DNA of 64,000 nt. Source: an uncultured delta proteobacterium (GTDB lineage Bacteria; Desulfobacterota; BSN033; UBA1163). The DNA is taken from NCBI GenBank assembly GCA_963806715.1, contig CAWEAV010000033.1:9501-73500 (forward strand), written 5' to 3'. The position numbers and the translations under genes were made by a program. The notes under the pieces were generated by a model. It was not told where the DNA came from and did no database searches. It saw only the letters and a program-made list of their open reading frames with translations. This document shows, in pieces, positions 4,759 to 25,043 of this stretch; the first letter of the stretch is position 1, and every line of letters begins with the position of its first letter.

Positions 4759-4877
4759 ATAACAATTAGTCCTCCCCTTTAGTAAAGGGGAGTCAGAGGG
4801 GATTTGTCGAGATTTGTTGACTCAATTGGGGTATTAGTAAATGTCCGCTTTCTGCAATCTCATAAACATTTCTCGCT

Positions 4878-5554
4878 ATGGGCTTCGATGGAACCTCTAC
4901 GGTCAACGCGTTTCTCAGCTTATCAAACGACGTCAAGTTTTCCAAACTTTTCATCCTTTCCTTCTTATTATCAACAGCAGTCCAATCTAATAATCCTTGG
5001 AAGATCCGTAGTCTAATCGAGGCCGCATATTGTGGTTCACCTAACTTGGCAATCATTTCGCAATTGAAAGAGCTTGCAGGAGAGGCGAAATCCTCACAAT
5101 GGAATGGAAGGATGTGGACCTTTTCAAGAGAACAGTAACTGTCCTCGGAGAGAAAACCGAGGAACGGAGAGTCGTACCGCTGACGCAAAAGGCCTTCGAG
5201 GTTCTGAAAGCGCGAGAGCGGGCAAGGTCAAACGTGAGGCCATTGAAAGGAGACTTTGTCTTCACCCATCCAGCCGGAAGGAAGGCCAATATCCACACGC
5301 TGAGGACTGTGTTTGAGGCTGCGGTTGAAAGGACAAAGATAGAGGGCTTCCGCTTCCACGACCTGCGCCACACCTTTGCCTCAAGGCTCGCCCAGTCCGG
5401 AACAGACCCTTACACAATCCAGAGACTCATGGGGCACAAGTCTTTCGTGACGACGCAGAGATATGCCCACCATTACTCCGAAAGCCTGAGAAAAGGAATA
5501 GCGGCGCTGGATGAATTCAGGCAACAGAAATCCAATTTTATCACAATCGGGTGA
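4878..5554 (+). pseudogene. Tyrosine recombinase/phage integrase, N-terminally truncated and frame-broken near 5090
   Basis: 5099-5554 encodes the catalytic C-terminus (HDLRHTFASRLAQ, LMGHKS, TQRYAH = R..HxxR..Y). The upstream frame (4878-5098) carries the core-region motif LIEAA...LAIISQL...GEAKSS and joins by a 1-nt shift. No arm-binding/SAM-like N-terminal domain is present. The IS end lies about 120 bp upstream. Confidence 0.55.
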
Positions 5555-5605
5555 AAACCGAGGGTAGGATGGATTTGGAGAGTAGACGTAAGTTATTGAA
5601 AAAAT

Positions 5606-5675
5606 TGGTGCCGGAGGTCGGAATCGAACCGACACGGGGTGGAAGCCCCGCGGGATTTTGAGTCCGAAAACCGGC
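5606..5675 (-). other. tRNA-Leu(CAA)-like 3' fragment (anticodon arm to CCA), no 5' half; possible att-site remnant
   Basis: Reverse complement reads ...TCGGA CTCAAAA TCCCG CGGGG-CTTCCA-CCCCG T GTCGG TTCGATT CCGAC CTCCGGC A CCA. It has a perfect T-arm, a class-II variable arm, an anticodon loop CUCAAAA (CAA) and a CCA end. The 5' acceptor partner GCCGGAG and the D-arm are absent from the upstream sequence. Confidence 0.5.
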
Positions 5676-6039
5676 TTTTTGCTAACCCCCTGATTCTTAA
5701 GGCGGTCTCCCTTAACCACTTTAAAATACTGGGGAAAAACCTTTCAGGTCCATTCCATTCTACTCTGTCTATTCCATTCTATTCGGGTCGCTTTTATCAC
5801 AATTTTATCACATTAGCATTTCATGATTTGAATTGCCTACCTCTCATCGAATTCCTTATGTGCCTCAGGGGCAATGATTGCGGACGGCCTTCAAATAGAT
5901 AGTATTTTTCGAAGCCCAAAAAATTATGATTTGATGATCAAAGCTTCATCAGGCCCACCCCATTAATGGGAGAGGGTTTTAGCAAGCTATATTCAGTCTT
6001 TAGATGCTGATACCACCTCCTACAAGTGACAAGATGAGA

Positions 6040-6231
6040 CTAATCTTTGTCAATTCTCCTGGGCCGGATCATCTCTTCAGGCGATAGAATCTTCTCGATT
6101 TCTTCTTTCGAAAGAAACTTCTGATCGAGAACAAGGTCATAGACAGACTTTCCTGTTTGGAGGGCTTCTTTTGCAAGCATCGTAGAATTCCTAACCGAGA
6201 TATTCTTCAAGTTTCTTTCCTTTTGCCCCAT
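6040..6231 (-). pseudogene. Aspartate ammonia-lyase/fumarase-family C-terminal remnant (about 60 aa only)
   Basis: LAKEALQTGKSVYDLVLDQKFLSKEEIEKILSPEEMIRP matches the aspartase/class II fumarase C-terminus (AKEALETGKSV.ELVLE.GLLTEEELD.ILSPE.M..P). There is no room for the other 400 aa before the korG stop at 6307. Confidence 0.5.
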
Positions 6232-6306
6232 AGAACGGCTCTCTTATCCTTCGAAACTGCCTGATGATTGCCCTTGAGTAGTTTCTTGAAGGATTTCGGT
6301 TTCCTT

Positions 6307-6852
6307 CTATTCCTTCTTCGCCCGCTTGGCCGCGCTGATCCCTGCCTTGAGGGCTTCGCGGTTCAACCTCTCGGTGCCTTTGGGCACCCGTCCCAGGACC
6401 GCCGTCTCCATCGATTTGGAAGAAACGATCGGGGTCAACTGGGTCAAGGCTCCCAGGGCCACGATGTTGGCCACCATCTCCCTCTTTAATTTTTCCCGGG
6501 CAATGCGCGTAAAGGGGATCCGAAAGACCTTCGACGTGGGGACCTGCTTAACAAAGGTCGAATCGACGATGAGCAATCCACCCGGTTTGAGATCCGAATA
6601 GAATTCGTCGCACGATTTCTGATTCATGGCTAAAAGGAGGTCCAGCTTCATGGCCTTGGGATAGTCGATCTCCTCCTCACTGACGATCACCTCTGCCTTG
6701 CTCGATCCTCCTCTGGCCTCAGGACCATAGCTCTGAGTTTGGGCCACGTACTTCCCCTCATAGATCCCGATGGCTTCTGCCAAGATAATCCCCATGAGGA
6801 TGAGTCCCTGTCCGCCTGAACCACTGAGTCGAATCTCATACCGATCACCCAT
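6307..6852 (-). CDS. korC: 2-oxoacid:ferredoxin oxidoreductase gamma subunit
   Basis: 181 aa; GSGGQGLILMGIILAEAIGIYEGKYVAQTQSYGPEARGG is the POR/KOR gamma signature. Last gene of the 4-gene operon. Confidence 0.85.
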   Translation of the reverse strand: MGDRYEIRLSGSGGQGLILMGIILAEAIGIYEGKYVAQTQSYGPEARGGSSKAEVIVSEEEIDYPKAMKLDLLLAMNQKSCDEFYSDLKPGGLLIVDSTFVKQVPTSKVFRIPFTRIAREKLKREMVANIVALGALTQLTPIVSSKSMETAVLGRVPKGTERLNREALKAGISAAKRAKKE

Positions 6853-7691: not shown

Positions 7692-8893
7692 CAGGATACC
7701 TCCAGGATCCGATTCAAAATTTCCTCGGGGGTAATGATCGTTCCATCCACCTTATTAAGAGTAAACACCTTGGCCGTGTCCCGGTTCACCCGCTTCACCT
7801 CCCGGGAAACTTGCCCCATGTTCATTTCCGGAACGATCAATGTTTTGGAGGTCTGTAAGATCTTTTCCACGGCCGACCTCATAAAGGGCCAGAGGGTGAT
7901 TAGCTTAAGCAAGCCCACCTTCTTTCCCTTCTCCCTTGCTTCAATCACGGCCCTCTTGGCAGAACGGGCCACACATCCGTAGGCCACAAGGGTGATCTCC
8001 GCATCGTCGGTCAGGAAGAATTCAGCCATCTGGATCTCTGAGAAATTCTGATTGATCTTCCGGAAGAGCCGATTGATGAAAGGACCAATCTCATCGGGTC
8101 TTGAGGTGGGGAATCCTCGAATATCGTGGGTTAATCCTGTCACATGGTATCGATAGCCCTCTCCAAAATTGGCCATGGCTGGAACAGCGCTCGCTGTATC
8201 CTCGTAGGGGATATACCATTCCGGAGGGACCGTGGGTTTAACCCGGTTGATGATCGTCACCTCTTCTTCATCCGACAGGGTCATCTTTTCCCGCATATGA
8301 GCCACAACCTCATCGATCAGGACAATGACCGGGTTCCGGAACTTTTCCGAGAGGTTGAAGGCCTTGATCGTAATTTCATAACATTCCCGGACCGTCGAGG
8401 CAGACAGGACGATGGCCGGATGGTCCCCATGGGTCCCCCACCGCGCCTGCATCACATCGCTCTGGGAGGGATAGGTCGGAAGCCCGGTACTTGGCCCGCC
8501 CCTCATCACATTGACGATGACACAGGGAATTTCAGCGATCACGGCAAAACCAAGATTTTCCTGCATCAGCGAAAAACCCGGACCGCTCGTTGCCGTCATC
8601 GCTTTCACCCCAGCCTGAGAAGCACCAATCACCGCACCCACGCTGGCAATCTCATCTTCCATCTGGATGAAGGTTCCATCTACCTGCGGCAGTTTTACGG
8701 ATAAAATCTCGGAAATCTCTGTGGCGGGAGTAATAGGATATCCTGCAAAAAAACGACAACCTGCCCGAAGCGCCCCTTCAACAATCGCTTCATTGCCCTG
8801 GAGCAACACCTCTCTCTTCTGACTCCGCTTCTTCACCTTTCCCCTCTTTCTTCTTACTCCTTCTGTTCCACGGTGATGGCAAAATCGGGGCAC
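7691..8893 (-). CDS. korA: 2-oxoacid:ferredoxin oxidoreductase alpha subunit
   Basis: 400 aa; LLQGNEAIVEGALRAGCRFFAGYPITPATEI...ATSGPGFSLMQENLGFA. The true start may be an internal GTG, since the annotated N-terminus overlaps the delta subunit. Confidence 0.9.
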   Translation of the reverse strand: MPRFCHHRGTEGVRRKRGKVKKRSQKREVLLQGNEAIVEGALRAGCRFFAGYPITPATEISEILSVKLPQVDGTFIQMEDEIASVGAVIGASQAGVKAMTATSGPGFSLMQENLGFAVIAEIPCVIVNVMRGGPSTGLPTYPSQSDVMQARWGTHGDHPAIVLSASTVRECYEITIKAFNLSEKFRNPVIVLIDEVVAHMREKMTLSDEEEVTIINRVKPTVPPEWYIPYEDTASAVPAMANFGEGYRYHVTGLTHDIRGFPTSRPDEIGPFINRLFRKINQNFSEIQMAEFFLTDDAEITLVAYGCVARSAKRAVIEAREKGKKVGLLKLITLWPFMRSAVEKILQTSKTLIVPEMNMGQVSREVKRVNRDTAKVFTLNKVDGTIITPEEILNRILEVS

Positions 8894-9075
8894 CGGATCT
8901 CACACCATCCACAACGGATACACTTTCCGATATCCTTCACATAGGGGTACCCTGACTCGTCCTTGGCTAAGGCCCCGGTTGGGCAGAAAGCAACACAGAT
9001 CCCGCAGGCCTTGCACCAGGCGCGGTAGATATCGATCTTGGCTTCCTCTCTCTTTTTCTTGGATTCAACTGCCAT
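8854..9075 (-). CDS. korD: 2-oxoacid:ferredoxin oxidoreductase delta subunit (2x[4Fe-4S] ferredoxin)
   Basis: MAVESKK...CKACGICVAFCPTG...CIRCGWCEIRCP gives two CxxCxxCxxxCP motifs. ATG at 9075 has a GAGG RBS. Confidence 0.85.
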   Translation of the reverse strand: MAVESKKKREEAKIDIYRAWCKACGICVAFCPTGALAKDESGYPYVKDIGKCIRCGWCEIRCPDFAITVEQKE

Positions 9076-9201
9076 AAATAACCTCAAGACGTAGATTTCC
9101 GTTCTTATCCCGTCTGAAAACGGAACGACACGGAAACTTCGTTTTCATTTTCATTAATTATTTTCCCCTACTTTAATCATAAGCTAAAATAATGAAACTT
9201 G

Positions 9202-10416: not shown

Positions 10417-10524
10417 CGTTTTCTCTCCTCAGATGAATTGCAGCAATCTCGTAGGATCGGTCTCTGTACCGACCCAAGGGATAAGCGCACGGCAAGGGTA
10501 TCGCTTAACCCAGATAATGCTTAA

Positions 10525-10713
10525 ATTTTTACTATACGGACGTGGGCAAGCCGTTCGGAAAGGCTTCAGGGCGAACCTTTCGTGAAAGGAATACTTACGT
10601 CCCAGACCCCTGCCGGAGTTCACATTGAGTGGAGTCCCCCCTTCCCTTAAAATGTCAAATCGACCGCCGTCTGAAGCCTTAAAGAGCGGTTTACCCATGG
10701 CCGTTTCTGCACC
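10525..10713 (-). repeat. Copy A of a roughly 200 nt imperfect-palindromic intergenic element (MITE/ERIC-like or structured leader RNA)
   Basis: Reverse complement aligns along nearly its whole length with 26801-27001 (roughly 80% identity by eye, e.g. GGTTCGCCCTGAAGCCTTTCCGAACGG, AAGGCTTCAGA.GGCGGTCGA, GTGAACTCC.GCAGGGGTCTGGG.CGTAAGT). Lies in the 5' leader of icd, same orientation as the gene. Confidence 0.7.
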
Positions 10714-11241
10714 CATTAAAAGGTGGCTTAAGCCATCAATCTCGATTTCATCACATTTCCCTGGTCCATCCATTTGTGATCTCCCTCGTCTTTAAAAATC
10801 ATAGGAAGAACGCTAGGGTTGGTCAGATTTGCCAAGTCAATGCGGGCAAGTGATTTCATGATCACCACTTAAATCGGGGCGAGAAAAGATTTTGAGCAGG
10901 CCAACAGTCACTTCTCACTTTGACAAACAACAATTCATGAGGTGCCTTCGAAAAAAGCCCTCACTCTGAAACCTGCGGAGATCTCAATAATGAGACATCC
11001 CCGAGGATCTGTCTTTATTTCATCCGGATTTCCCCGATAGTTGCTTAATTTTCGCGGACAGGTAGGCTTTCAAACCCTTAAAACGCGGTCTTTTTTGATT
11101 ATTTTCGGGTTCATTCCCAATTTCACCAAAGCGGAAGTCCAGGAAGTATGGAATCTCATCAGTCAATCAACCTGTCATAGGATTCCGCTTTAATGGTTTT
11201 CAGCCCACCTGTCCGCTCTCCATGGGATGGTTTTTGCAACA

Positions 11242-11619
11242 TCAGGGTTTCTTTGCATAATCGACCATACCTTGAAAGTCAACCACCACTACAGGCTCAT
11301 TCCCAACCACCCAGGCATCATGTCCTGACCCGAGCATAGACACATCTCCTGCCTTACAATCTTTTTCTTTACCATCATCCGTCTTCACTCTTAATGTTCC
11401 GGATACATGATACTGAAAGTGAGGAGCTTCACAACTTTTTGTTTTTGCTAACGGTTTGACAGATTCAGACCACTTCCATCCAGGTAGAAATGTTGCCCGT
11501 CCTATTTTCCTCCCATCAATATCTATGATTTCCAATCTTCCTTTATCAAACGTCCTCACCTCATCTGGTGTATTCAAGCTTTTCACTTCCAATCCTGCCT
11601 TTTTTACCATCTTAATCAC
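11242..11619 (-). CDS. Cupin-fold small protein
   Basis: 125 aa; HFQYHVSG...GDVSMLGSGHDAWVV cupin-like motifs. Confidence 0.5.
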   Translation of the reverse strand: MIKMVKKAGLEVKSLNTPDEVRTFDKGRLEIIDIDGRKIGRATFLPGWKWSESVKPLAKTKSCEAPHFQYHVSGTLRVKTDDGKEKDCKAGDVSMLGSGHDAWVVGNEPVVVVDFQGMVDYAKKP

Positions 11620-11871
11620 CTCCTCAACTTGTCGGACTGATATTTACTTCCGACCTTAATATATGCACTCCAAATAAGACTTTCAACAGAAGAGTTACCC
11701 AAACGGTGTGGAGAGGTGTTGGAAAGTTCACTTATTTAGAGAAGGCGGCAGGACATAAAGTGAAGCCCTCAATTTTGCAGGTTGAATGTAGCATTATTGA
11801 CGGCTTTTTGGACAAAAACAGTCACGTATTAGGAGAACGGATAATGGCTGATATATACAATACTGCATGTG

Positions 11872-12111
11872 TCAGAGGATTTCATCAATTTCCTCATCTA
11901 AAAACCCCACAGCTTTCAACCTTTCTCTTCGCAGCCTTTTTTCTTCTTCTTTGGTTCTTCGTGCTCGTCCCGTTTCAGTTATTGTTTCTATCGAAGCGAC
12001 TAAGCAACCCGGTTTTTGAGTATACAAAGATAAAATCGTTATTCCTATCCCAAAAGTTACTCCGAACAAGAATGCTTCAAGAACGCTTGACCTCATTTCT
12101 GTCTCCTCCAC
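11872..12111 (-). CDS. Small hypothetical membrane protein
   Basis: 79 aa; one hydrophobic helix (FLFGVTFGIGITILSLY) then a K/E-rich tail. No recognised family. Confidence 0.3.
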   Translation of the reverse strand: MEETEMRSSVLEAFLFGVTFGIGITILSLYTQKPGCLVASIETITETGRARRTKEEEKRLRRERLKAVGFLDEEIDEIL

Positions 12112-12613
12112 CCCTCAAGACAACAAACCTGATCATCACATAAAAGCACTTCCAAGCATACCATTAGAATTCATGGGATGGTTGGGAAAGAAACCAATCT
12201 CACCCCAGGAGGTGCCCTATGACCGCATTATATGAAGGTCATCTCATGGTATCTCTCCTTGTAGCCATAACTGTAGCACACTATAAGGTAGTCACCTTAT
12301 TCTGTCAAGCCAAACAGGGGTTCAAATTCTCTATTCTTTTGACCCCGGCCCCAGGTGATCTAGGAATGGTCTTAATGACTTGCGGGTCTTCAATGAAGCT
12401 GATGACCCGCATGATTCCTCGACACTTCAGACAGAAGAAGAATGGTTGGAGTTGATCTGCTAAGGGTTGTAGAACGGATGGGACACAAGACGATTCAGGT
12501 CGTGCTGACGGAACCGAAGGCAGGCAGCTAATACCTGCAAGGCCTGAAAGTTCATACGCAAGCCCGCAGGCAGCGCTCCAAACCGGCAAGCAGCCCTATT
12601 TCGCAGGATTGTG

Positions 12614-14627: not shown

Positions 14628-16091
14628 GTGTATAAAAAATTTTATGGTTTCTCAGAGAAGCCTTTTGAAGTCACACCGGATCCAAAGTTTCTTTATTTCA
14701 CTTCCAGCCACCGGGATGCACTGGCTGCTGTGTTTGACGCCATAACAAATCGAAAAAGATTCATCTCCCTCATAATAGGAGAAGCAGGAACTGGCAAAAC
14801 GACCCTGATTCATTTTTTACTTGGTAGGCTTGACCCGAAAGTGAAGACAGCTTTTATCTGTCACCCTCCAATCACTTTTAGAGATCTACTGAGAAATATA
14901 TTTCTGGAATTAGGCTTTAACGTTGTGGAGGAAAACAATAAGGTTCTTTTGATTCAACTGAATGAATATTTGGAGGAACTTGCCGTAGGTCAGACTCTGG
15001 CGGTGATCATTGATGAAGCCCAGAATCTTCCAGAAGAAGTTATAGCGGAACTGGGACGGCTTGAGGAGAGGATTGCCCTAACATCAAGTAGACTTCAGAT
15101 CATCTTCGTGGGACAACCTGAGTTTGAAGCCAAACTCAATTCTCCAATTTTGAGGGAACTCAACCAGAGGATAGAGATAAAGTGTCAAATCAGAGCCTTC
15201 ACTGAGGAAGAGTCAAGAGCCTATATTAATCATCGACTCAAATTGGTTGGAAGCAGTAGTTCTGAGGCACTCACCCCAAATGCTCTTTCAACGATTCTCA
15301 TCCATGCCAAAGGAATCCCACGAGCAATCAACATTCTTTGTGACAGGGCCTTTCTGATTGGCTACGGTTTATCCAGAAAACGGATCGACGCAGAGATTAT
15401 TGGGAAAGCAATTAACGAGATGGAAAGTCCAATCCTGCCGAAATCAATCCCTACGAAGATCGTTCCGGCGCTCAAGGGCACTCACTGGAAGTTCCTCAGA
15501 CTCAATTTTCCTCAAAGGAGGATTTCCTTTGCCATTCTATCTATACTCTGCCTGGGAGCATCCCTTCTTCTGATCTATGGATTCCTGCAGCAAAAACCCA
15601 CAAAGACCGGAAGTATTGAATCCATAACAAATCGCCGTATAGGTACATTAGAGGAGGTGATAGCCGTTGAGAATGGGCAAACCATTTCTTCTCTGTCGCA
15701 GAAATATTACCGCATGACGAATCCAACCCTTCTTGCCTTCATCCTAGATTTCAATCCTGAGATTACCAATGCCGACCTCATTCAGGTGAACCAGAAAATT
15801 AAGATACCCAGGATCACAAAAGATTGGCTGGTGTTTCAATCTCCTGATCGTGTCTACAAAATTCATGTTGGAACTTTTTCGACTCTTGACTTTGTCAAAC
15901 CTTACAAGAATGAACCCCTATTAAAAGGAAAGAAAATAGAAGTCCTTCCCCGGAAAGTATCCCCTCAGGACACATGGTATCGAGTCGTAGTTGGAAATTT
16001 TGATCATAAGGATGAGGCTTTGAAAATGATAGATCTTCTTAAAGAAAAAAGGCTGTTACCCCTTTTCGGAGATATTCCTAAGATCGAGTGA
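14628..16091 (+). CDS. ExeA/GspA-like AAA ATPase (AAA_22) with TM segment, LysM-like and C-terminal SPOR domains
   Basis: 487 aa; IIGEAGTGKTTL, IIDEAQNL, a TM helix (ISFAILSILCLGASLLLIYGF), a LysM-like segment (GTLEEVIAVENGQTISSLSQKYY) and a SPOR-like end (YKIHVGTFST...WYRVVVGNFDHKDEA). Confidence 0.7.
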   Translation: MYKKFYGFSEKPFEVTPDPKFLYFTSSHRDALAAVFDAITNRKRFISLIIGEAGTGKTTLIHFLLGRLDPKVKTAFICHPPITFRDLLRNIFLELGFNVVEENNKVLLIQLNEYLEELAVGQTLAVIIDEAQNLPEEVIAELGRLEERIALTSSRLQIIFVGQPEFEAKLNSPILRELNQRIEIKCQIRAFTEEESRAYINHRLKLVGSSSSEALTPNALSTILIHAKGIPRAINILCDRAFLIGYGLSRKRIDAEIIGKAINEMESPILPKSIPTKIVPALKGTHWKFLRLNFPQRRISFAILSILCLGASLLLIYGFLQQKPTKTGSIESITNRRIGTLEEVIAVENGQTISSLSQKYYRMTNPTLLAFILDFNPEITNADLIQVNQKIKIPRITKDWLVFQSPDRVYKIHVGTFSTLDFVKPYKNEPLLKGKKIEVLPRKVSPQDTWYRVVVGNFDHKDEALKMIDLLKEKRLLPLFGDIPKIE

Positions 16092-17049: not shown

Positions 17050-17720
17050 CTAATTCGAACCCAGTGCTTTCATGGCAGCGGTCATGGGGTCGCCGTAGAA
17101 AACTGGGTCAACTTTTTCCACGATATCCGCTGACACCTCAAGGAAGTTTCGTTTGTTTTCCAGCGGGATGAGGGCACGGCGAGCGCCATTTTCCATCGCC
17201 ATCTGCAAGGGTTCAATCAATGTATGGACAGATTTTATGTTGCCCTGAATGCTTAAGTCTCCCAAAATTACCAATCCAGGAGCGACAGGAGCCTTGCGAA
17301 GGGCCGAGCCATCGCAACAACGAAGGCGATTCCAGCTTCGCACGTGATTCGGTTTGCCAGTAAATCGATTACCTCCACATGCAAGTCAGTTGTATCCAGA
17401 ACGCTCGCTATGCCCATCTGGACCTTATGACCCTGGAGAAAGCCAAAAGCACGGTTGAGGCATTCCCTAATCGAGGAATCGATTCCTCCGGCCATTTTCA
17501 GTTTGCCTGTGCCAGATGATGTGCCAACCTCGATACGGTAAATTCCGACCTTTCCCTCGGAGCTCACTCGATGCAGCATAATCTGACCCTGGAGCGCACG
17601 TAGGGCCAACCTTCGGATGAACGCTGAGTAGGCTTTCTGCGGGTCATACCAAACCACCAGGCCGTGATCGTCGATTTGCCTGGAAATCAAAGCCGCGAGA
17701 TAGTCTGAGACCTTACCCAT
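17050..17720 (-). CDS. Standalone Lon-protease-like S16 peptidase domain protein (frame broken near 17268-17343, probably a sequencing indel)
   Basis: The two overlapping ORFs together match the Lon C-terminal proteolytic domain (GKVGIYRIEVGTSSGTGKLKMAG; ITCEAGIAFVVAMA aligns to PKDGPSAGIAM; LVILGDLSIQGNIKSVHTLIEP aligns to [22 protein letters not shown]). The catalytic Ser position appears to be Glu (CEAG); the Lys is retained. No ATPase domain. Confidence 0.55.
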
Positions 17721-17800
17721 TTTTGCTGCCTGTTAAAAGTTGTAAATTCCCTGTTTGAAACTGAGTCAACTTTTGACTAAGATTGAGGAAAGGGGTTAGT

Positions 17801-17862
17801 AAAAATACTACAAAAGAAGGTCCCCCTCTCCCCTCAATCCTTTCCCACGGTGGGGAGAGGGG
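17801..17862 (-). terminator. Rho-independent terminator downstream of the DUF3307 gene
   Basis: Perfect 11 bp stem CCCCTCTCCCC/GGGGAGAGGGG (17823-17833 / 17852-17862). On the minus strand it is followed by UUCUUUUGUAGUAUUUUU. Confidence 0.6.
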
Positions 17863-17886
17863 ATATTTAGGAGAAATAATGTTCAT

Positions 17887-18660
17887 TCAGACCATATCCA
17901 GGAAGAATTTCGTTGAATACGCGATGAACATACCGTAGCCAAAACTCATCAATGTACCGATAATGATGTACTCAGCTTCCATCCGGTTCTGTTGATCTTT
18001 AATCTCCCCGAATCGAAGAATCGATTTCGCTGCAATCAAGAAACCAATGCCGCCCGGTTGTCCTGTCAGAATGAACAGGAAGATCAAGCTCCTCTCAAGG
18101 TATCCGATGAGCTTTCCTCCATTTTCGAATCCCCGGGCTGTGGTTACTCCCTCTTTTGTCGTTTGTTCCCCAATCTTCTGTAACTCGTCTATAAAAGGCT
18201 TTACAGCCAAACCAATGAGGATGCCTCCTGCTTTGATAGCAACCGTCAGACCAGATATCAGAATGAGAAATTCCAGGAAACCCCTCCCGAGCAGGTCCAC
18301 CCAGAATGTTGATGAACTATTTAGTGGAATAATCTTCGTGTTGACAATCAAAATGGTGATAGCGCTTATGACGGCGAGATGCACCGCCTGGTCCAGGATA
18401 AATGAATAGACACTCTCTTTCTTTAACGTGACCTTAATGTAATCCGTCAGACCATGTGTAAGAAATATGACGAGGGGAACTTGCCAGAGGCTCCAGATTC
18501 CGCAAAGTACGTAACCTGAAGCAACGACGATGAAGGCATGTTTCAAAAGTATACGAGCCCTTCTCTTCCTTGATGCATCTGCATCGGACTGAAAGATGAA
18601 GTCACCCAGGAAATGGGCCGCCAAAAGACAAATCAGAATTTCTTTCGCAGCTTCACTCAT
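17887..18660 (-). CDS. DUF3307-like (SatE-like) polytopic membrane protein with HxxxDxxxQ motif
   Basis: 257 aa, about 7 predicted TM helices, N-terminal AHFLGDFIFQSD motif. Family assignment is from memory of DUF3307/SatE. Sits immediately 3' of the SatD-like gene. Confidence 0.5.
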   Translation of the reverse strand: MSEAAKEILICLLAAHFLGDFIFQSDADASRKRRARILLKHAFIVVASGYVLCGIWSLWQVPLVIFLTHGLTDYIKVTLKKESVYSFILDQAVHLAVISAITILIVNTKIIPLNSSSTFWVDLLGRGFLEFLILISGLTVAIKAGGILIGLAVKPFIDELQKIGEQTTKEGVTTARGFENGGKLIGYLERSLIFLFILTGQPGGIGFLIAAKSILRFGEIKDQQNRMEAEYIIIGTLMSFGYGMFIAYSTKFFLDMV

Positions 18661-18841
18661 TTGGTGCGCCTGACCTCCAGCCCGTCACAGCTTGTTGAAG
18701 CTGTAATGGGCGTTTACAGCCTGCTGGGGCTGTGTGTTTAGGATGGCACCCCATCCTCCTTCATCGAGGGAAGAGGAGCGTGGTCTCTTACGGGTCCCGG
18801 AGACCCGATCGCCATAAAAACAGCCCTCAGAGGCTGTAAAT

Positions 18842-19510
18842 CTATATTACAGCCCTTTTAAGCTGTTTTTCAAAAAATCCGATCGCCTTTTCTACCGGAA
18901 ACCAGCCGGCTCGCTGGAGATGCCTGTTGACAGACTGTTGGGTAATCGCAGGTTTCCACAGGCTCCCGATTTCCTCCTGCTTCAAGCCCTGCAATGCGCC
19001 GGTTATGGCAAGAGCTTGTTTATCACTCCAGTTCATTGCCAATACGTCCAGAAGGTGAACCAGAACATCGAGAGATTCTTCAATCTCCCGCTCAGGAAAT
19101 CTAAAGCACATATTGCTTGCCTTTGTCATTTCCTCCAGGGCTTTACCTGAATACCGATACGCCTGCCCATCCCCGCCGGAAACACGATCATCCGGAACAA
19201 AATCAACTGTCCCGATTGCGATCGCCATACGGGTATCTATCTTGCTTGCCGCCGCTGCTGCTCGCAAAAACGCCCTGTAAAACAACCCGATTCTCAACGA
19301 CACCGCGGGATCAGCCACCAACAACTGCCAGGAGTCTCCTCTGAAAACATCCACATCCAGCGGAATGCTCTCTTTAAAAACCTTACGAAGAACCTTTGAC
19401 CCATCTTTCATGTTACGGTGAAGCCTTTGCCGCTCCTCGACTGATAATTTCGAAGAATCCACAATATCTCCCGTAACGACCGCGTAAGGCTTTCCTTTCT
19501 CAATCTTCAT
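18842..19510 (-). CDS. SatD-like protein with nucleotide-cyclase (Palm) type metal-binding motifs
   Basis: 222 aa; YAVVTGDIVDSSKL resembles the class III cyclase beta1 motif FADIVGFT, and VFRGDSWQLLVADP resembles KTIGDAYMAVFGAP. Start codon overlaps the upstream gene stop (ATGA). Confidence 0.5.
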   Translation of the reverse strand: MKIEKGKPYAVVTGDIVDSSKLSVEERQRLHRNMKDGSKVLRKVFKESIPLDVDVFRGDSWQLLVADPAVSLRIGLFYRAFLRAAAAASKIDTRMAIAIGTVDFVPDDRVSGGDGQAYRYSGKALEEMTKASNMCFRFPEREIEESLDVLVHLLDVLAMNWSDKQALAITGALQGLKQEEIGSLWKPAITQQSVNRHLQRAGWFPVEKAIGFFEKQLKRAVI

Positions 19511-20031
19511 TTTATCCTTCTCCGTCCCTTCTTCGGAGTTAATGCCTTTTCCTCGAATAGATTCTCAAGGCCGTGGGCGATGGCAAAGGATTTGTTGGTC
19601 TTGCATTTCTCCTTCACCCTTTCAGGCCAATATTCCATGGCCTGTTGAGCCCAGTCATATTTCTCTTCCTCAAGCTCCTTCCCAGGCCATTCTTGTTTCC
19701 GGCAGGTATATTCCTCGAACGTGTTCTGCGGAAATTCTAACCGGTAAATGCCTCCAGCTGCCTCGAACCTTAGCCAGCCATGCTGGTGGGACTCCATGAA
19801 AAGACGCTCAACATTTGTCTCTCTGAGCAAGAATAACTTCCAATCGGGGTGTCGAATCATGTCTCGGCCAATCACTCCCAGGTCGTTAAGACAAAACCCA
19901 ATTAGGGCAAAGGCTTCAAGAGCAAGATGAAAGGGGGTAATATGTTTCCGGACGCCCCTTCGAGAATCCCAAAATCCCGCAGCCCAGCAAGGAGACCTCG
20001 GGCCACCTTTCGTTGTACGGTAGGAGTCCAT
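19507..20031 (-). CDS. Hypothetical protein (start likely internal; annotated N-terminus overlaps the upstream gene)
   Basis: 174 aa ORF overlapping the 190 aa ORF by about 130 nt. The real start is possibly MIRHPDW or MESHQHG. No recognised domain. Confidence 0.35.
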   Translation of the reverse strand: MDSYRTTKGGPRSPCWAAGFWDSRRGVRKHITPFHLALEAFALIGFCLNDLGVIGRDMIRHPDWKLFLLRETNVERLFMESHQHGWLRFEAAGGIYRLEFPQNTFEEYTCRKQEWPGKELEEEKYDWAQQAMEYWPERVKEKCKTNKSFAIAHGLENLFEEKALTPKKGRRRIK

Positions 20032-20474
20032 TCCTTCTTAACTCCATGAAGCTTTCTGGATAACCAACTTATGACTTCTCCAACACGAATTTCCCGGTCG
20101 GGATGCCCGGCTCGGTGGAAAACCTCCTCTGTAACAAAAGCATATAGCAAGGGCTCTGCCCTCGCCGTGATCCAGTAATAGAAAGCGCGAATAATTTCGA
20201 TATCAGCAGTTGAAACCTCCAGAGTCCGGGCTAACTTCCAGGCATTGGGTGGGGATCCATGAATGAATCGAGGGCGGAATGCACGGGTATAGGTATCTCT
20301 TACACGGGCGAGGGTCATTTTGGAAAGAACCGCAAGTGCAGATTTGGGGGAATTGGCCTTGGTCAGCTCCTCAGACCAATTTGAAACGAGCAGCCGCATG
20401 TCCCCAAGGAGCGCCCCACCTTTTGCGAGTCGGCTGGTGAATTCTACTGCTCCTTGTGCATTTTGTCTATCCAT
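19902..20474 (-). CDS. Hypothetical protein, about 190 aa
   Basis: Helical; no family confidently recognised (vague resemblance to small BREX-associated BrxA-like proteins, not supportable from sequence alone). Confidence 0.4.
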   Translation of the reverse strand: MDRQNAQGAVEFTSRLAKGGALLGDMRLLVSNWSEELTKANSPKSALAVLSKMTLARVRDTYTRAFRPRFIHGSPPNAWKLARTLEVSTADIEIIRAFYYWITARAEPLLYAFVTEEVFHRAGHPDREIRVGEVISWLSRKLHGVKKEWTPTVQRKVARGLLAGLRDFGILEGASGNILPPFILLLKPLP

Positions 20475-20512
20475 GCAACGTACGCCGTTTTTGCATTCTA
20501 ATCTCCAACTGT

Positions 20513-21196
20513 CTATTTTCTACCAGAAAGCAGTTGACATGAACCCATAAAATTATTTCTAAACACTTCCTTTACTTCATCAGTCTCTTCCCTTCCCCTT
20601 CCCGCATACCTCACGTTCGGATGAAGGTGCCTATTCAATTCCCGCACAAAATCAATAATCGGATGTCCATATCGCCTGCCCTGAGTACTTTCGGCTTCAA
20701 GCCTGATAACTTCACAAATGATTTCGAGGGTGGTGTTTAATCTGATCTCACTTTTAATATATTTCGGAATCGAGGGAACCACTTGTCGGTATGTTTCCTT
20801 TACAACCTCCGGCTTAACAGAATCATGGATGTAGTAATTACTCACAAGCTGAATTACCAATTTCCCCACCATTTTCCTGAAGTTCTTGAATACGACTCTA
20901 CCAGAACAAATCTGTTTGATGTTTTTGAGGAAGGATAGATATCCAGCCTCATCATACTCAAAGATATCTCCGTACTTGTCCCGGGTGTACTGAGTGTAGG
21001 CGTATACATCGGTTTTTGGCCCCCTCACTTTGGACTCACAAACCACAAGCGTTCTCTGCTCGGGATGGTAGGCCAATACATCAATATCGCTCCATCCATG
21101 CCCTTCCCCCTGGAAAGGAAATCTCTGTTGCGTCCAGTAACCCTGGAGCCTCCAATAGGCCTCGACGATACTTTCAACGGCCATCTGCTCAGACAT
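20513..21196 (-). CDS. PD-(D/E)xK restriction-endonuclease-fold (Hjc/Mrr-like) nuclease domain protein
   Basis: N-terminus ESIVEAYWRLQGYW...GWSDIDVLAYHPEQRTLVVCESKV shows E...D-hydrophobic...E-x-K spacing typical of the Holliday-junction-resolvase/restriction-endonuclease fold. C-terminal 140 aa unknown. First gene of the cluster. Confidence 0.5.
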   Translation of the reverse strand: MSEQMAVESIVEAYWRLQGYWTQQRFPFQGEGHGWSDIDVLAYHPEQRTLVVCESKVRGPKTDVYAYTQYTRDKYGDIFEYDEAGYLSFLKNIKQICSGRVVFKNFRKMVGKLVIQLVSNYYIHDSVKPEVVKETYRQVVPSIPKYIKSEIRLNTTLEIICEVIRLEAESTQGRRYGHPIIDFVRELNRHLHPNVRYAGRGREETDEVKEVFRNNFMGSCQLLSGRK

Positions 21197-23209: not shown

Positions 23210-23506
23210 CTACTCTACTATACCCTTTATCGTGTTCACCTTCTCTTTCAATTCTTTCCCAACCTTGAAGTAAGGAAGTTTCTTAGGAGGGACATCCACA
23301 TTCTTACCTGTCTTGGGGTTTCGACCTTTGTAAGCACCATAATTCCTCACCACAAAGCTTCCAAATCCTCTAATCTCAATCCCTTCGCCCTTCTCCAGAC
23401 TTTCTCTCATCGAATCAAAAATGCCGTTTACAATGACCTTTGCTGCTTTAGACGGAATTCGCACCCTTTCTGAGACCTTCTCGATGAGATCGTTTTTGTT
23501 CATCAA
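23210..23506 (-). CDS. IHF/HU family DNA-binding protein
   Basis: 98 aa; GFGSFVVRNYGAYKGRNPKTGKNVDVPPKKLPYFKVGKELK. Confidence 0.85.
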   Translation of the reverse strand: MMNKNDLIEKVSERVRIPSKAAKVIVNGIFDSMRESLEKGEGIEIRGFGSFVVRNYGAYKGRNPKTGKNVDVPPKKLPYFKVGKELKEKVNTIKGIVE

Positions 23507-24969: not shown

Positions 24970-25043
24970 TGGCTGGGGGACGAGGGTTCGAACCTCGGTT
25001 GATGGAGTCAGAGTCCATAGTCCTGCCACTAGACGATCCCCCA
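24970..25043 (-). tRNA. tRNA-Gln (anticodon CUG)
   Basis: Reverse complement TGGGGGATCGTCTAGTGGCAGGACTATGGACTCTGACTCCATCAACCGAGGTTCGAACCCTCGTCCCCCAGCCA folds as a cloverleaf. Acceptor 7 bp; anticodon stem ATGGA/TCCAT with loop CUCUGAC; T-arm CGAGG-TTCGAAC-CCTCG; encoded CCA. Confidence 0.85.

Follow-up and report, generated by a model that had tools for sequence, protein, structure and literature searches.

Does a run of closely packed genes on one strand make up one system? Such a run lies at positions 17050–21196 of a 64-kb stretch of DNA from an uncultured delta proteobacterium (contig CAWEAV010000033.1; the whole stretch is called the window here), and all genes listed for it are on the minus strand. 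A sequence-only reading had taken the run for a single novel signalling or defence system of six genes, encoding a nuclease-like protein, two unrecognised proteins of 190 and 174 amino acids (aa), a SatD-like protein with cyclase features, a DUF3307 membrane protein and a standalone Lon-like S16 peptidase. We found that the region is a composite. It contains the relic of a type 1 bacteriophage exclusion (BREX-1) operon, an intact cassette of a satD-like and a DUF3307 gene, and an unrelated gene with a PD-(D/E)xK motif. The suspected relation to defence was correct, in the form of a BREX-1 relic. The best overall explanation, and most probably the right one, is a BREX-1 relic with a surviving SatD-DUF3307 pair in which SatD is the regulator of DUF3307.

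The region was searched with Pfam, PADLOC and NCBIfam profiles, and junctions and reading frames were mapped by tblastn with intact relatives. All open reading frames (ORFs) of the window were also compared by tblastn with about 110 related loci, which carry L-numbers (L001 and so on) here. Seven minus-strand ORFs are present, all where the sequence-only reading had placed them. Three of the six supposed genes fell to fragments of known BREX-1 proteins (BrxA, PglX, PglZ and BrxL) in the profile searches. BREX type 1 operons, such as those of Salmonella D23580, E. coli HS and pEFER, have the order brxA-brxB-brxC-pglX-pglZ-brxL. The fragments in the window keep this order as brxA, pglX′, pglZ′ and brxL′, with the cargo between pglX′ and pglZ′ (Table 1).

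The two proteins described as unrecognised are pieces of BrxA and PglX. The 190-aa ORF is BrxA (Pfam PF08849, 56.1 bits against a cut-off of 23). The 174-aa ORF begins as BrxA, its residues 19–107 matching positions 166–254 of 262 of the PADLOC profile, and its C-terminal part is the terminus of PglX (PADLOC profile positions 1246–1303 of 1332, E 9e-18). Intact BrxA from L021 aligned to the window in two frames, residues 2–169 at 20453–19950 in frame −3 and residues 130–250 at 20085–19708 in frame −2. Because of the frameshift, brxA is spread over the 190-aa ORF and the N-terminal ~110 aa of the 174-aa ORF, and these two ORFs overlap by 130 nt. Two overlapping junctions had been proposed in the cluster. 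One is there, an ATGA at 19507–19510 in which the stop codon of the pglX tail overlaps the start of SatD; the other is this frameshift signature and not translational coupling. The last codons of brxA were lost at a deletion junction. Beyond it, the pglX remnant continues in frame −2, the frame of the brxA C-terminal part, with 72% identity at 19698–19558 to residues 1232–1276 of the 1295-aa BREX-1 PglX of L017. The deletion, about 8 kb as judged from the gene sizes of relatives, removed brxB, brxC and codons 1–1231 of pglX, and its junction is in frame.

A second deletion formed the other end. The supposed standalone peptidase consists of two ORFs in different frames (17268–17720 and 17050–17343). 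The 150-aa ORF starts with the N-terminus of PglZ (aa 1–49; PADLOC profile positions 6–54 of 961) and goes on with BrxL positions 495–590 of 675, and the 97-aa ORF covers BrxL positions 591–673 (TIGR02653). These two BrxL pieces scored 86.8 and 97.7 bits, far under the cut-off of 628. The pglZ remnant is 58% identical to residues 3–40 of the 922-aa PglZ of L023 (17720–17607, frame −3) and shares its frame with the adjoining brxL piece. BrxL of L023 aligned with residues 496–589 at 17591–17310 (frame −3) and with residues 575–671 of 675 at 17331–17065 (frame −2), at 63–70% identity. This deletion, about 4 kb by the same estimate, took pglZ from codon 41 onward and codons 1–495 of brxL. The DNA at both the brxL and the brxA frameshifts was read directly at the sequence level. 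The similarity to Lon was rightly seen; its source is the BrxL tail, and what had been proposed as a protease effector is a truncated, frameshifted remnant.

Table 1. Features of the region 17050–21196, in window coordinates.
Feature	Position	Strand	Remarks
brxA pseudogene	19705–20474	−	near full length; 1-nt frameshift near 19950–19960
pglX 3′ remnant	19507–19698	−	last ~62 codons and stop, fused in frame to brxA
satD-like gene, intact	18842–19510	−	222 aa; cyclase/palm-fold N-domain and HTH-like C-domain (predicted)
Four 18-bp palindromes, ACAGCY-N6-RGCTGT	18849–18866, 18820–18837, 18716–18733, 18687–18704	.	putative SatD operators
Sigma-70-like promoter match, TTGAAA-18-TAATAT	18844–18873	−	consensus scan, 9 of 12 positions; possible DUF3307 promoter
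DUF3307 gene, intact	17887–18660	−	257 aa; polytopic membrane protein
pglZ 5′ remnant	17607–17720	−	first ~40 codons, fused in frame to brxL tail
brxL 3′ remnant	17050–17591	−	last ~180 codons, Lon-like domain; 1-nt frameshift near 17311
Terminator-like hairpin, weak	17812–17832	−	after DUF3307; 9 pairs (3 G-C), T-rich tail
Nuclease-like gene, intact	20513–21196	−	227 aa; PD-(D/E)xK-type motif

The losses are extensive. No trace of brxB or brxC was found in the window by tblastn with BrxB of L020 and L021 and BrxC of L017, which gave chance matches only (E ≥0.37). The methyltransferase domain of PglX is absent; the residues that survive are equivalent to 1232–1276 of 1295. Residues 3–40 of 922 remain of PglZ and residues 496–671 of 675, frameshifted, of BrxL. 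Since brxB, brxC, the methyltransferase and the phosphatase are all missing, the BREX system here is dead and unable to methylate or restrict.

The intact form of the locus was seen in two relatives. L017 has the order brxC-pglX-PDC_M28C-SatD-DUF3307 and L023 the order M28C-SatD-DUF3307-pglZ-brxL, which jointly give brxC-pglX-(M28C-SatD-DUF3307)-pglZ-brxL. PglX of L017 and BrxL of L023 both score above the BREX-1 cut-offs (835.9 against 500 for NF033452 and 1079.5 against 628, respectively). As the fragments are 58–72% identical to the proteins of these two loci, the window contains what is left of a BREX-1 operon in which SatD-DUF3307 lay between pglX and pglZ. Other relatives have decayed in other ways. 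L021 still has brxA intact, then a truncated brxB (PF08747) and a few terminal codons resembling pglX, all ahead of SatD-DUF3307; its deletion differs from that in the window. Of pglX, L002/L022, L106, L107, L108, L109 and L110 retain only 25–48 decayed tail codons, immediately before SatD; in L111/L112, DUF3307 is followed by the first 23 codons of pglZ. At least eight related loci have the pair with nothing more of BREX than such scars of the pglX tail or the pglZ head. In every one of these loci, L021 included, SatD and DUF3307 are full length, with ratios of nonsynonymous to synonymous substitution (dN/dS, computed against the window copies) of 0.12–0.20. Several lineages lost BREX independently, and the cassette is what selection kept. 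The cassette occurs in intact BREX-1, in two differently truncated BREX loci and beside scars alone; therefore, it is cargo selected independently of its host system.

Further genes were noted around these loci. The PDC-M28C protein between pglX and SatD (481 aa; L017 7154–8599, L023 1631–3076) is a PADLOC candidate component, and it matches Sll1717-family P-loop ATPases just under the cut-off (72.8 against 75 bits). No M28A or M28B partners were detected in the L017 and L023 sequence at hand. Embedded cargo is common in BREX loci. The BREX island of Salmonella, for one, contains PARIS (PMC11341690). The Oceanisphaera plasmid pA (L020, NZ_CP136857.1) has an intact BREX-1 operon with two embedded pairs: an AAA ATPase and a hypothetical protein at the brxC/pglX junction (4873–6787), and an ATP-binding protein and a DUF4435 protein (PARIS-like) at the pglX/pglZ junction (10421–12300). 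L106 is a small graveyard of defence-gene debris, in which a 99-aa fragment of the C-terminus of type I restriction HsdR (8113–8412) precedes a 47-aa ORF (9015–9158) whose last ~25 codons are the pglX-tail remnant, both upstream of SatD-DUF3307. Directly upstream of SatD in L107 (2324–7356) are an HNH nuclease gene and the gene for a 1479-aa protein with a weak DUF8371 match and no PADLOC match; the latter gene overlaps the called SatD start and the decayed pglX-tail remnant. A “KKGRR” tail ahead of SatD was considered as a conserved peptide and rejected, as its frame has stop codons in several loci. The purine-rich DNA at this position is more likely the ribosome-binding region of SatD.

The two cassette genes form a pair of their own. 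DUF3307 lies directly downstream of SatD on the same strand in 70 of 80 species-representative genomes, drawn from Thermodesulfobacteriota, Aminicenantes, Bacteroidota, Ignavibacteriales, Chloroflexi, Verrucomicrobiota, Planctomycetota and others, and the pairing is kept on two megaplasmids at 25–28% SatD identity. SatD and DUF3307 alone recur among the ~110 related loci; the six-gene order does not. When four neighbours on each side were clustered all against all in the 80 loci, no third conserved partner gene emerged, and the clusters reflected clade-specific synteny. Elsewhere the pair is mostly flanked by genes for major facilitator superfamily (MFS) transporters, FGE-sulfatase, Ser/Thr kinases and RecJ or by metabolic genes, and defence matches among the immediate neighbours are few. 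Synteny around the pair is conserved within clades. Links to BREX are confined to one SatD subclade (≥63% identity). Neither protein matched a PADLOC model, including as PDC-M28A or M28B. The pair was absent from 50,697 phage records, where DUF3307 gave no match at E ≤1e-3, and SatD was found in 2 of 72,556 plasmid records. In the open-access library searched, essentially nothing was found on DUF3307, SatD or PDC-M28: a single paper mentions DUF3307, and none connects SatD with cyclases or defence. Two variants of the arrangement were noted. SatD is followed by a ~800-aa Ser/Thr kinase-tetratricopeptide repeat protein in L011–L013 (L011 10001–13215, L012 861–4075), with overlapping genes in L011 and L013, and in eight loci without DUF3307 (for example L068 944–2800) the end of an MFS gene coincides with the SatD start or closely precedes it.

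SatD of the window is a divergent relative of PF16264 rather than a curated member, as judged by its score of 25.3 bits against a cut-off of 29 (E 1.4e-5, profile positions 1–163 of 211). This family, which takes its name from satD in the sat operon of Streptococcus mutans, matches 46 of 85 SatD homologues at E ≤1 (best 2.4e-7). The AlphaFold2 model has a high confidence (predicted local distance difference test score 94.7) and predicts a class III nucleotidyl-cyclase/palm fold for residues 1–140 (approximately), followed by five helices at residues 144–221 that resemble a helix-turn-helix (HTH) domain. Using Foldseek against the PDB, we found the best match to be the adenylyl cyclase Ma1120 (4wpa; E 9e-5, TM-score on the target 0.59). 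Cya2 guanylyl cyclase (2w01), a uridylate cyclase (8jsz) and Cas10 palm domains were also matched. There were 14 matches at E ≤0.001, mostly class III cyclases and one Cas10 chain of a Csm complex, and up to E 0.003 further cyclases, GGDEF domains and Cas10/Cmr2 palm domains followed. G14, G58, D59, W61, Q62 and R79 are invariant in the 85 homologues, and D15, D92 and R94 are near-invariant. In the secondary structure of the model, D15 lies at the end of strand 1 and D59 in the turn between strands 2 and 3. The fold match and the conservation of these two aspartates support, at the fold level, the cyclase-like nature that had been proposed for SatD and made dependent on motif conservation in homologues.

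DUF3307 is a clear member of its Pfam family (PF11750, 63.5 bits against a cut-off of 23) over residues 8–108; residues 110–257 are conserved and lie outside the Pfam model. The protein is all-helical with about seven hydrophobic segments, in line with the seven-transmembrane protein that had been anticipated, and it has many invariant polar residues. Structure comparison found no meaningful solved relative, and profile and structure searches found no recognizable nucleotide-sensor domain. It would be a novel-fold protein with a conserved polar His/Asp/Glu/Arg core, perhaps an intramembrane enzyme or a transporter. On small plasmids (NC_019077.1 3170–3400, NZ_KX353852.1 6980–7216 and Klebsiella plasmids), annotated DUF3307 genes match residues 163–247 only, and this C-terminal third may be a separable module. 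The terminator hairpin that had been noted after the gene is there, read as 17832–17812, in a weak form; terminator-like sites in the region are no commoner than in shuffled sequence by a pattern scan.

Aligning the spacers between satD and DUF3307 of relatives exposed a set of palindromes. In the window they form two pairs, each spaced by 29 bp, within 18687–18866. The motif ACAGCY-N6-RGCTGT has four matches in the 64 kb, all in this span, against 0.01 expected. The layout is shared by relatives (L002 8148–8358, L106 9799–9977, L113 1068–1217). The form that holds across phyla is ACAnn-N8-nnTGT, which in 70 loci occurs at 5.37 per kb in the spacer and at 0.042 per kb in the rest of the same loci, a 127-fold difference. 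A pair spaced by 28–30 bp is found in the spacer of 24 of these 70 loci. In the kinase variant without DUF3307 (L011 9933–9979) the site pair is upstream of satD itself; therefore, the sites travel with SatD. One pair (18849–18866 and 18820–18837) overlaps both the SatD stop codon and the sigma-70-like promoter match, an arrangement that is consistent with repression by occlusion.

The bases in the palindrome arms also follow the protein. Residue 196, numbered on the window SatD and situated in a predicted helix (191–200), pairs with the arm bases as K with AAC (8 of 8), Q with AAG (16 of 20), R with AGC (6 of 7) and D or E with AGG (8 of 8). A change of residue 192 from Q to P accompanies ACA-to-ATA in all four ATAGC loci. 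The mutual information between residue and operator is 1.56 bits, compared with a maximum of 0.91 in 20,000 shuffles. From these patterns we infer that SatD binds the palindromes and regulates DUF3307. SatD would act as a transcription factor, presumably as a dimer. The class III cyclase/palm-fold domain would dimerize and bind or convert a nucleotide, and the C-terminal HTH would read the paired 18-bp palindromes (ACAnn-N8-nnTGT, 29 bp apart). SatD would in this way control the expression of the novel-fold DUF3307 membrane protein.

Several observations weigh against this regulator and against the relic that carries it. No Pfam cyclase or GGDEF model matched any of the 85 SatD homologues at E ≤1, and in a reading of the motifs an invariant A117 and a near-invariant S121 seem to take the place of the class III cyclase Asn/Arg pair. 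The HTH is weak at the sequence level (Sigma70_r4_2 in 10 of 85 homologues, best E 0.024), the only match to PDB profiles was 4gmq at E 0.13, which is no sequence relative, and the matches of the fold search came mainly from the N-domain. A perfect spacer site occurs in only 45 of the 70 loci. The covariation of residue and operator is inflated by shared ancestry, even though the same pairings return in distant clades, and the palindromes could also fold as RNA hairpins, one with a T-run after it. DUF3307 shows no similarity that points to a function. As for the relic, assembly errors could account for the two frameshifts but not for the two large deletions.

We considered whether the pair is instead an anti-phage module. 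As an accessory or back-up of BREX, SatD would make a nucleotide signal on infection, and DUF3307 would kill or arrest the cell like the transmembrane effectors of Pycsar and of cyclic-oligonucleotide-based anti-phage signalling systems (CBASS); the HTH and the operators would merely keep a toxic effector repressed. The position speaks for this, as the pair is co-oriented at the pglX/pglZ junction of intact BREX-1 (L017, L023), beside PDC-M28C. Guilt-by-embedding, on which the PDC candidates of Payne et al. were built (bioRxiv 10.1101/2024.01.29.577857), has a good record, and true systems can be embedded rarely; Zorya II was embedded once against 1590 non-embedded copies (bioRxiv 10.1101/2024.01.29.577857). 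Toxin-antitoxin pairs, the HsdR fragment and the HNH gene are neighbours in the BREX-scar clade, purifying selection acted on the pair after BREX loss, and the class III cyclase fold includes the Pycsar-type uridylate cyclase 8jsz, with both aspartates conserved in SatD. Against these points, the BREX-linked copies all belong to the one SatD subclade, and the embedding may thus reflect a single event. The neighbours in the 80 genomes are mostly non-defence genes in clade-conserved synteny, neither protein matched PADLOC, the pair is missing from phages and SatD is very rare on plasmids, and the locus itself lies among housekeeping genes with no other defence matches. DUF3307 lacks a recognizable nucleotide-sensor domain. 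Among the marks of nucleotide-signalling defence, namely a sensor-domain effector, association with defence islands and a match to a defence hidden Markov model, none was found for SatD-DUF3307. We regard the anti-phage module as unlikely, and a defence role of any kind is a minority possibility for the pair. The more specific proposal of an unrecognized nucleotide-signalling module, in which a class III cyclase-fold enzyme fused to an HTH would sense or make a nucleotide and also gate transcription of a novel-fold membrane effector, and which BREX would have recruited as embedded second-line immunity, beneficial enough to outlast repeated BREX loss, is distinctly unlikely. The general genomic context favours a membrane or stress function over phage defence.

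The palindromes could also work as RNA, as terminator or attenuator hairpins or processing sites of the satD-DUF3307 transcript, with SatD not being their reader. Each site can fold into a hairpin with a 5–6-bp stem, the site just after SatD (18820–18837) was scored as a terminator-like hairpin and is followed by TTTTT, and the changes in the arms are compensatory, as those of RNA stems would also be. However, the outer ACA/TGT triplets are invariant across phyla and need no G-U-type variants, and the fixed spacing of 29 bp within pairs is typical of protein sites. The inner arm bases follow a specific residue in the C-terminal helix of SatD, and the pair in the kinase variant is upstream of satD, not within the operon. 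Rfam gave no family match in 16.5–21.7 kb. We therefore consider an RNA element quite improbable, and we retain SatD as the candidate reader of the sites.

Mis-assembly of a genome with intact BREX-1 could in principle have produced the deletions and frameshifts. The window is apparently metagenome-assembled, and single-base indels are frequent assembly errors. L001, an independently assembled Logan contig, repeats both the identical brxA frameshift and the brxA-pglX-SatD junction, the two deletion junctions are clean in-frame fusions inside coding sequence, and around the cassette, analogous but differing BREX truncations are found in eight or more further loci, which come from other samples. 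An artefact is extremely improbable on this evidence. The original six-gene system, in which a cyclase would activate nuclease, membrane and Lon-protease effectors, can draw on the close packing and co-orientation of the ORFs, the cyclase-like fold of SatD, the analogy with Lon-type effectors of type III CRISPR signalling and a faint CARF_LON match on the 97-aa ORF (E 0.021), but it is refuted by the fragment map and the non-conservation of the gene order and has next to no probability left, since three of its genes are frameshifted BREX fragments with deletion junctions, its Lon-like piece has no ATPase part and is divided over two frames, its gene order has no second occurrence, only SatD and DUF3307 staying together, and its nuclease-like gene is not found with the pair in the ~110 related loci and is a singleton elsewhere.

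The nuclease-like gene is an independent neighbour, outside both BREX and the SatD pair. Its 227-aa product had no Pfam, NCBIfam or PDB sequence match. In 25 homologues of 46–81% identity, D37, D39, E54 and K56 are invariant together with a QGRRYGH..D.ARE.NRY motif, which fits the PD-(D/E)xK type that had been proposed. The family consists of proteins of ~222 aa encoded by single genes, and no homologue was found in any of the ~110 SatD loci. One homologue, in Kluyvera, is inserted alone between araD and polB (L101 10001–10669); another (L104 3021–3695) lies between genes for GmrSD and an SNF2/NOV_C helicase in a defence island of metagenomic origin, with a SIR2-STAND protein also near. The 227-aa protein could be a stand-alone defence nuclease. 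The flanks of the window are housekeeping in nature (isocitrate dehydrogenase, histidyl-tRNA synthetase, phosphoglucomutase, HU and tRNA-Gln), and no other defence genes were found in them. The HU gene and the tRNA that had been noted there are at 23210–23506 and 24970–25043 (tRNA-Gln). Close to the cluster but outside it, the opposite strand (14628–16091) encodes a 487-aa protein that combines an AAA_22 ATPase domain with LysM and SPOR peptidoglycan-binding domains in an ExeA-like architecture.

The locus carries a caution for annotation: what looks like a neat operon of unrecognised genes on one strand can be a known defence system wrecked in frame. In this case the plausible-looking ORFs arose from two large in-frame deletions together with two frameshifts. 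A passenger cassette in intact, truncated and scar-only BREX contexts is a natural experiment, and it bears on how candidates from guilt-by-embedding are to be read. The SatD-like protein and DUF3307 now have a concrete hypothesis attached to them, with an 18-bp putative operator and a 29-bp pairing. If the regulator model is true, residues 196 and 192 should reprogram the choice of operator.

Compared with known systems, the region is close to BREX type 1. Its fragments are homologous to BrxA, PglX, PglZ and BrxL in the canonical order and orientation, and in its close relatives the operon is complete and PglX scores above the cut-off of the NCBIfam BREX-1 model. It differs in the missing brxB and brxC, in the reduction of pglX, pglZ and brxL to ~62, ~40 and ~180 codons, and in the frameshifts of brxA and brxL. 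The Pfam SatD and DUF3307 families are without an assigned function; the window DUF3307 is a clear member, and the window SatD is under the curated cut-off. With class III cyclases (4wpa, 2w01 and 8jsz) SatD shares its predicted fold, at Foldseek E values of 9e-5 to 1e-3 and a TM-score of ~0.6 on the target, and D15 and D59 appear to be placed like the metal-binding Asp pair, as read from motif and secondary structure. SatD differs from them in having no Pfam cyclase match, in an apparent substitution of the transition-state Asn/Arg, and in the fusion of the domain to an HTH-like domain instead of a sensor or membrane anchor. Pycsar and CBASS with transmembrane effectors likewise encode a cyclase-fold protein beside a multi-pass membrane protein. 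In contrast to these, DUF3307 has no cyclic-nucleotide-binding or other sensor domain, SatD-DUF3307 is not generally associated with defence, and SatD has a predicted DNA-binding domain with cognate putative operators, which points to transcriptional control. Like BREX cargo (PARIS ariAB in Salmonella, BrxU in pEFER and the PDC candidates), SatD-DUF3307 is a co-oriented two-gene cassette among core genes, and it adjoins the candidate PDC-M28C in intact relatives. Unlike such cargo, it matches no PADLOC model, has no ATPase, nuclease or other typical defence domain, has mostly few defence-type neighbours outside one subclade, and outlives its BREX host locus. The locus is thus an ordinary kind of object, a decayed BREX-1 operon, that carries an uncharacterized passenger pair, and the evidence supports a regulator-plus-membrane-protein module.

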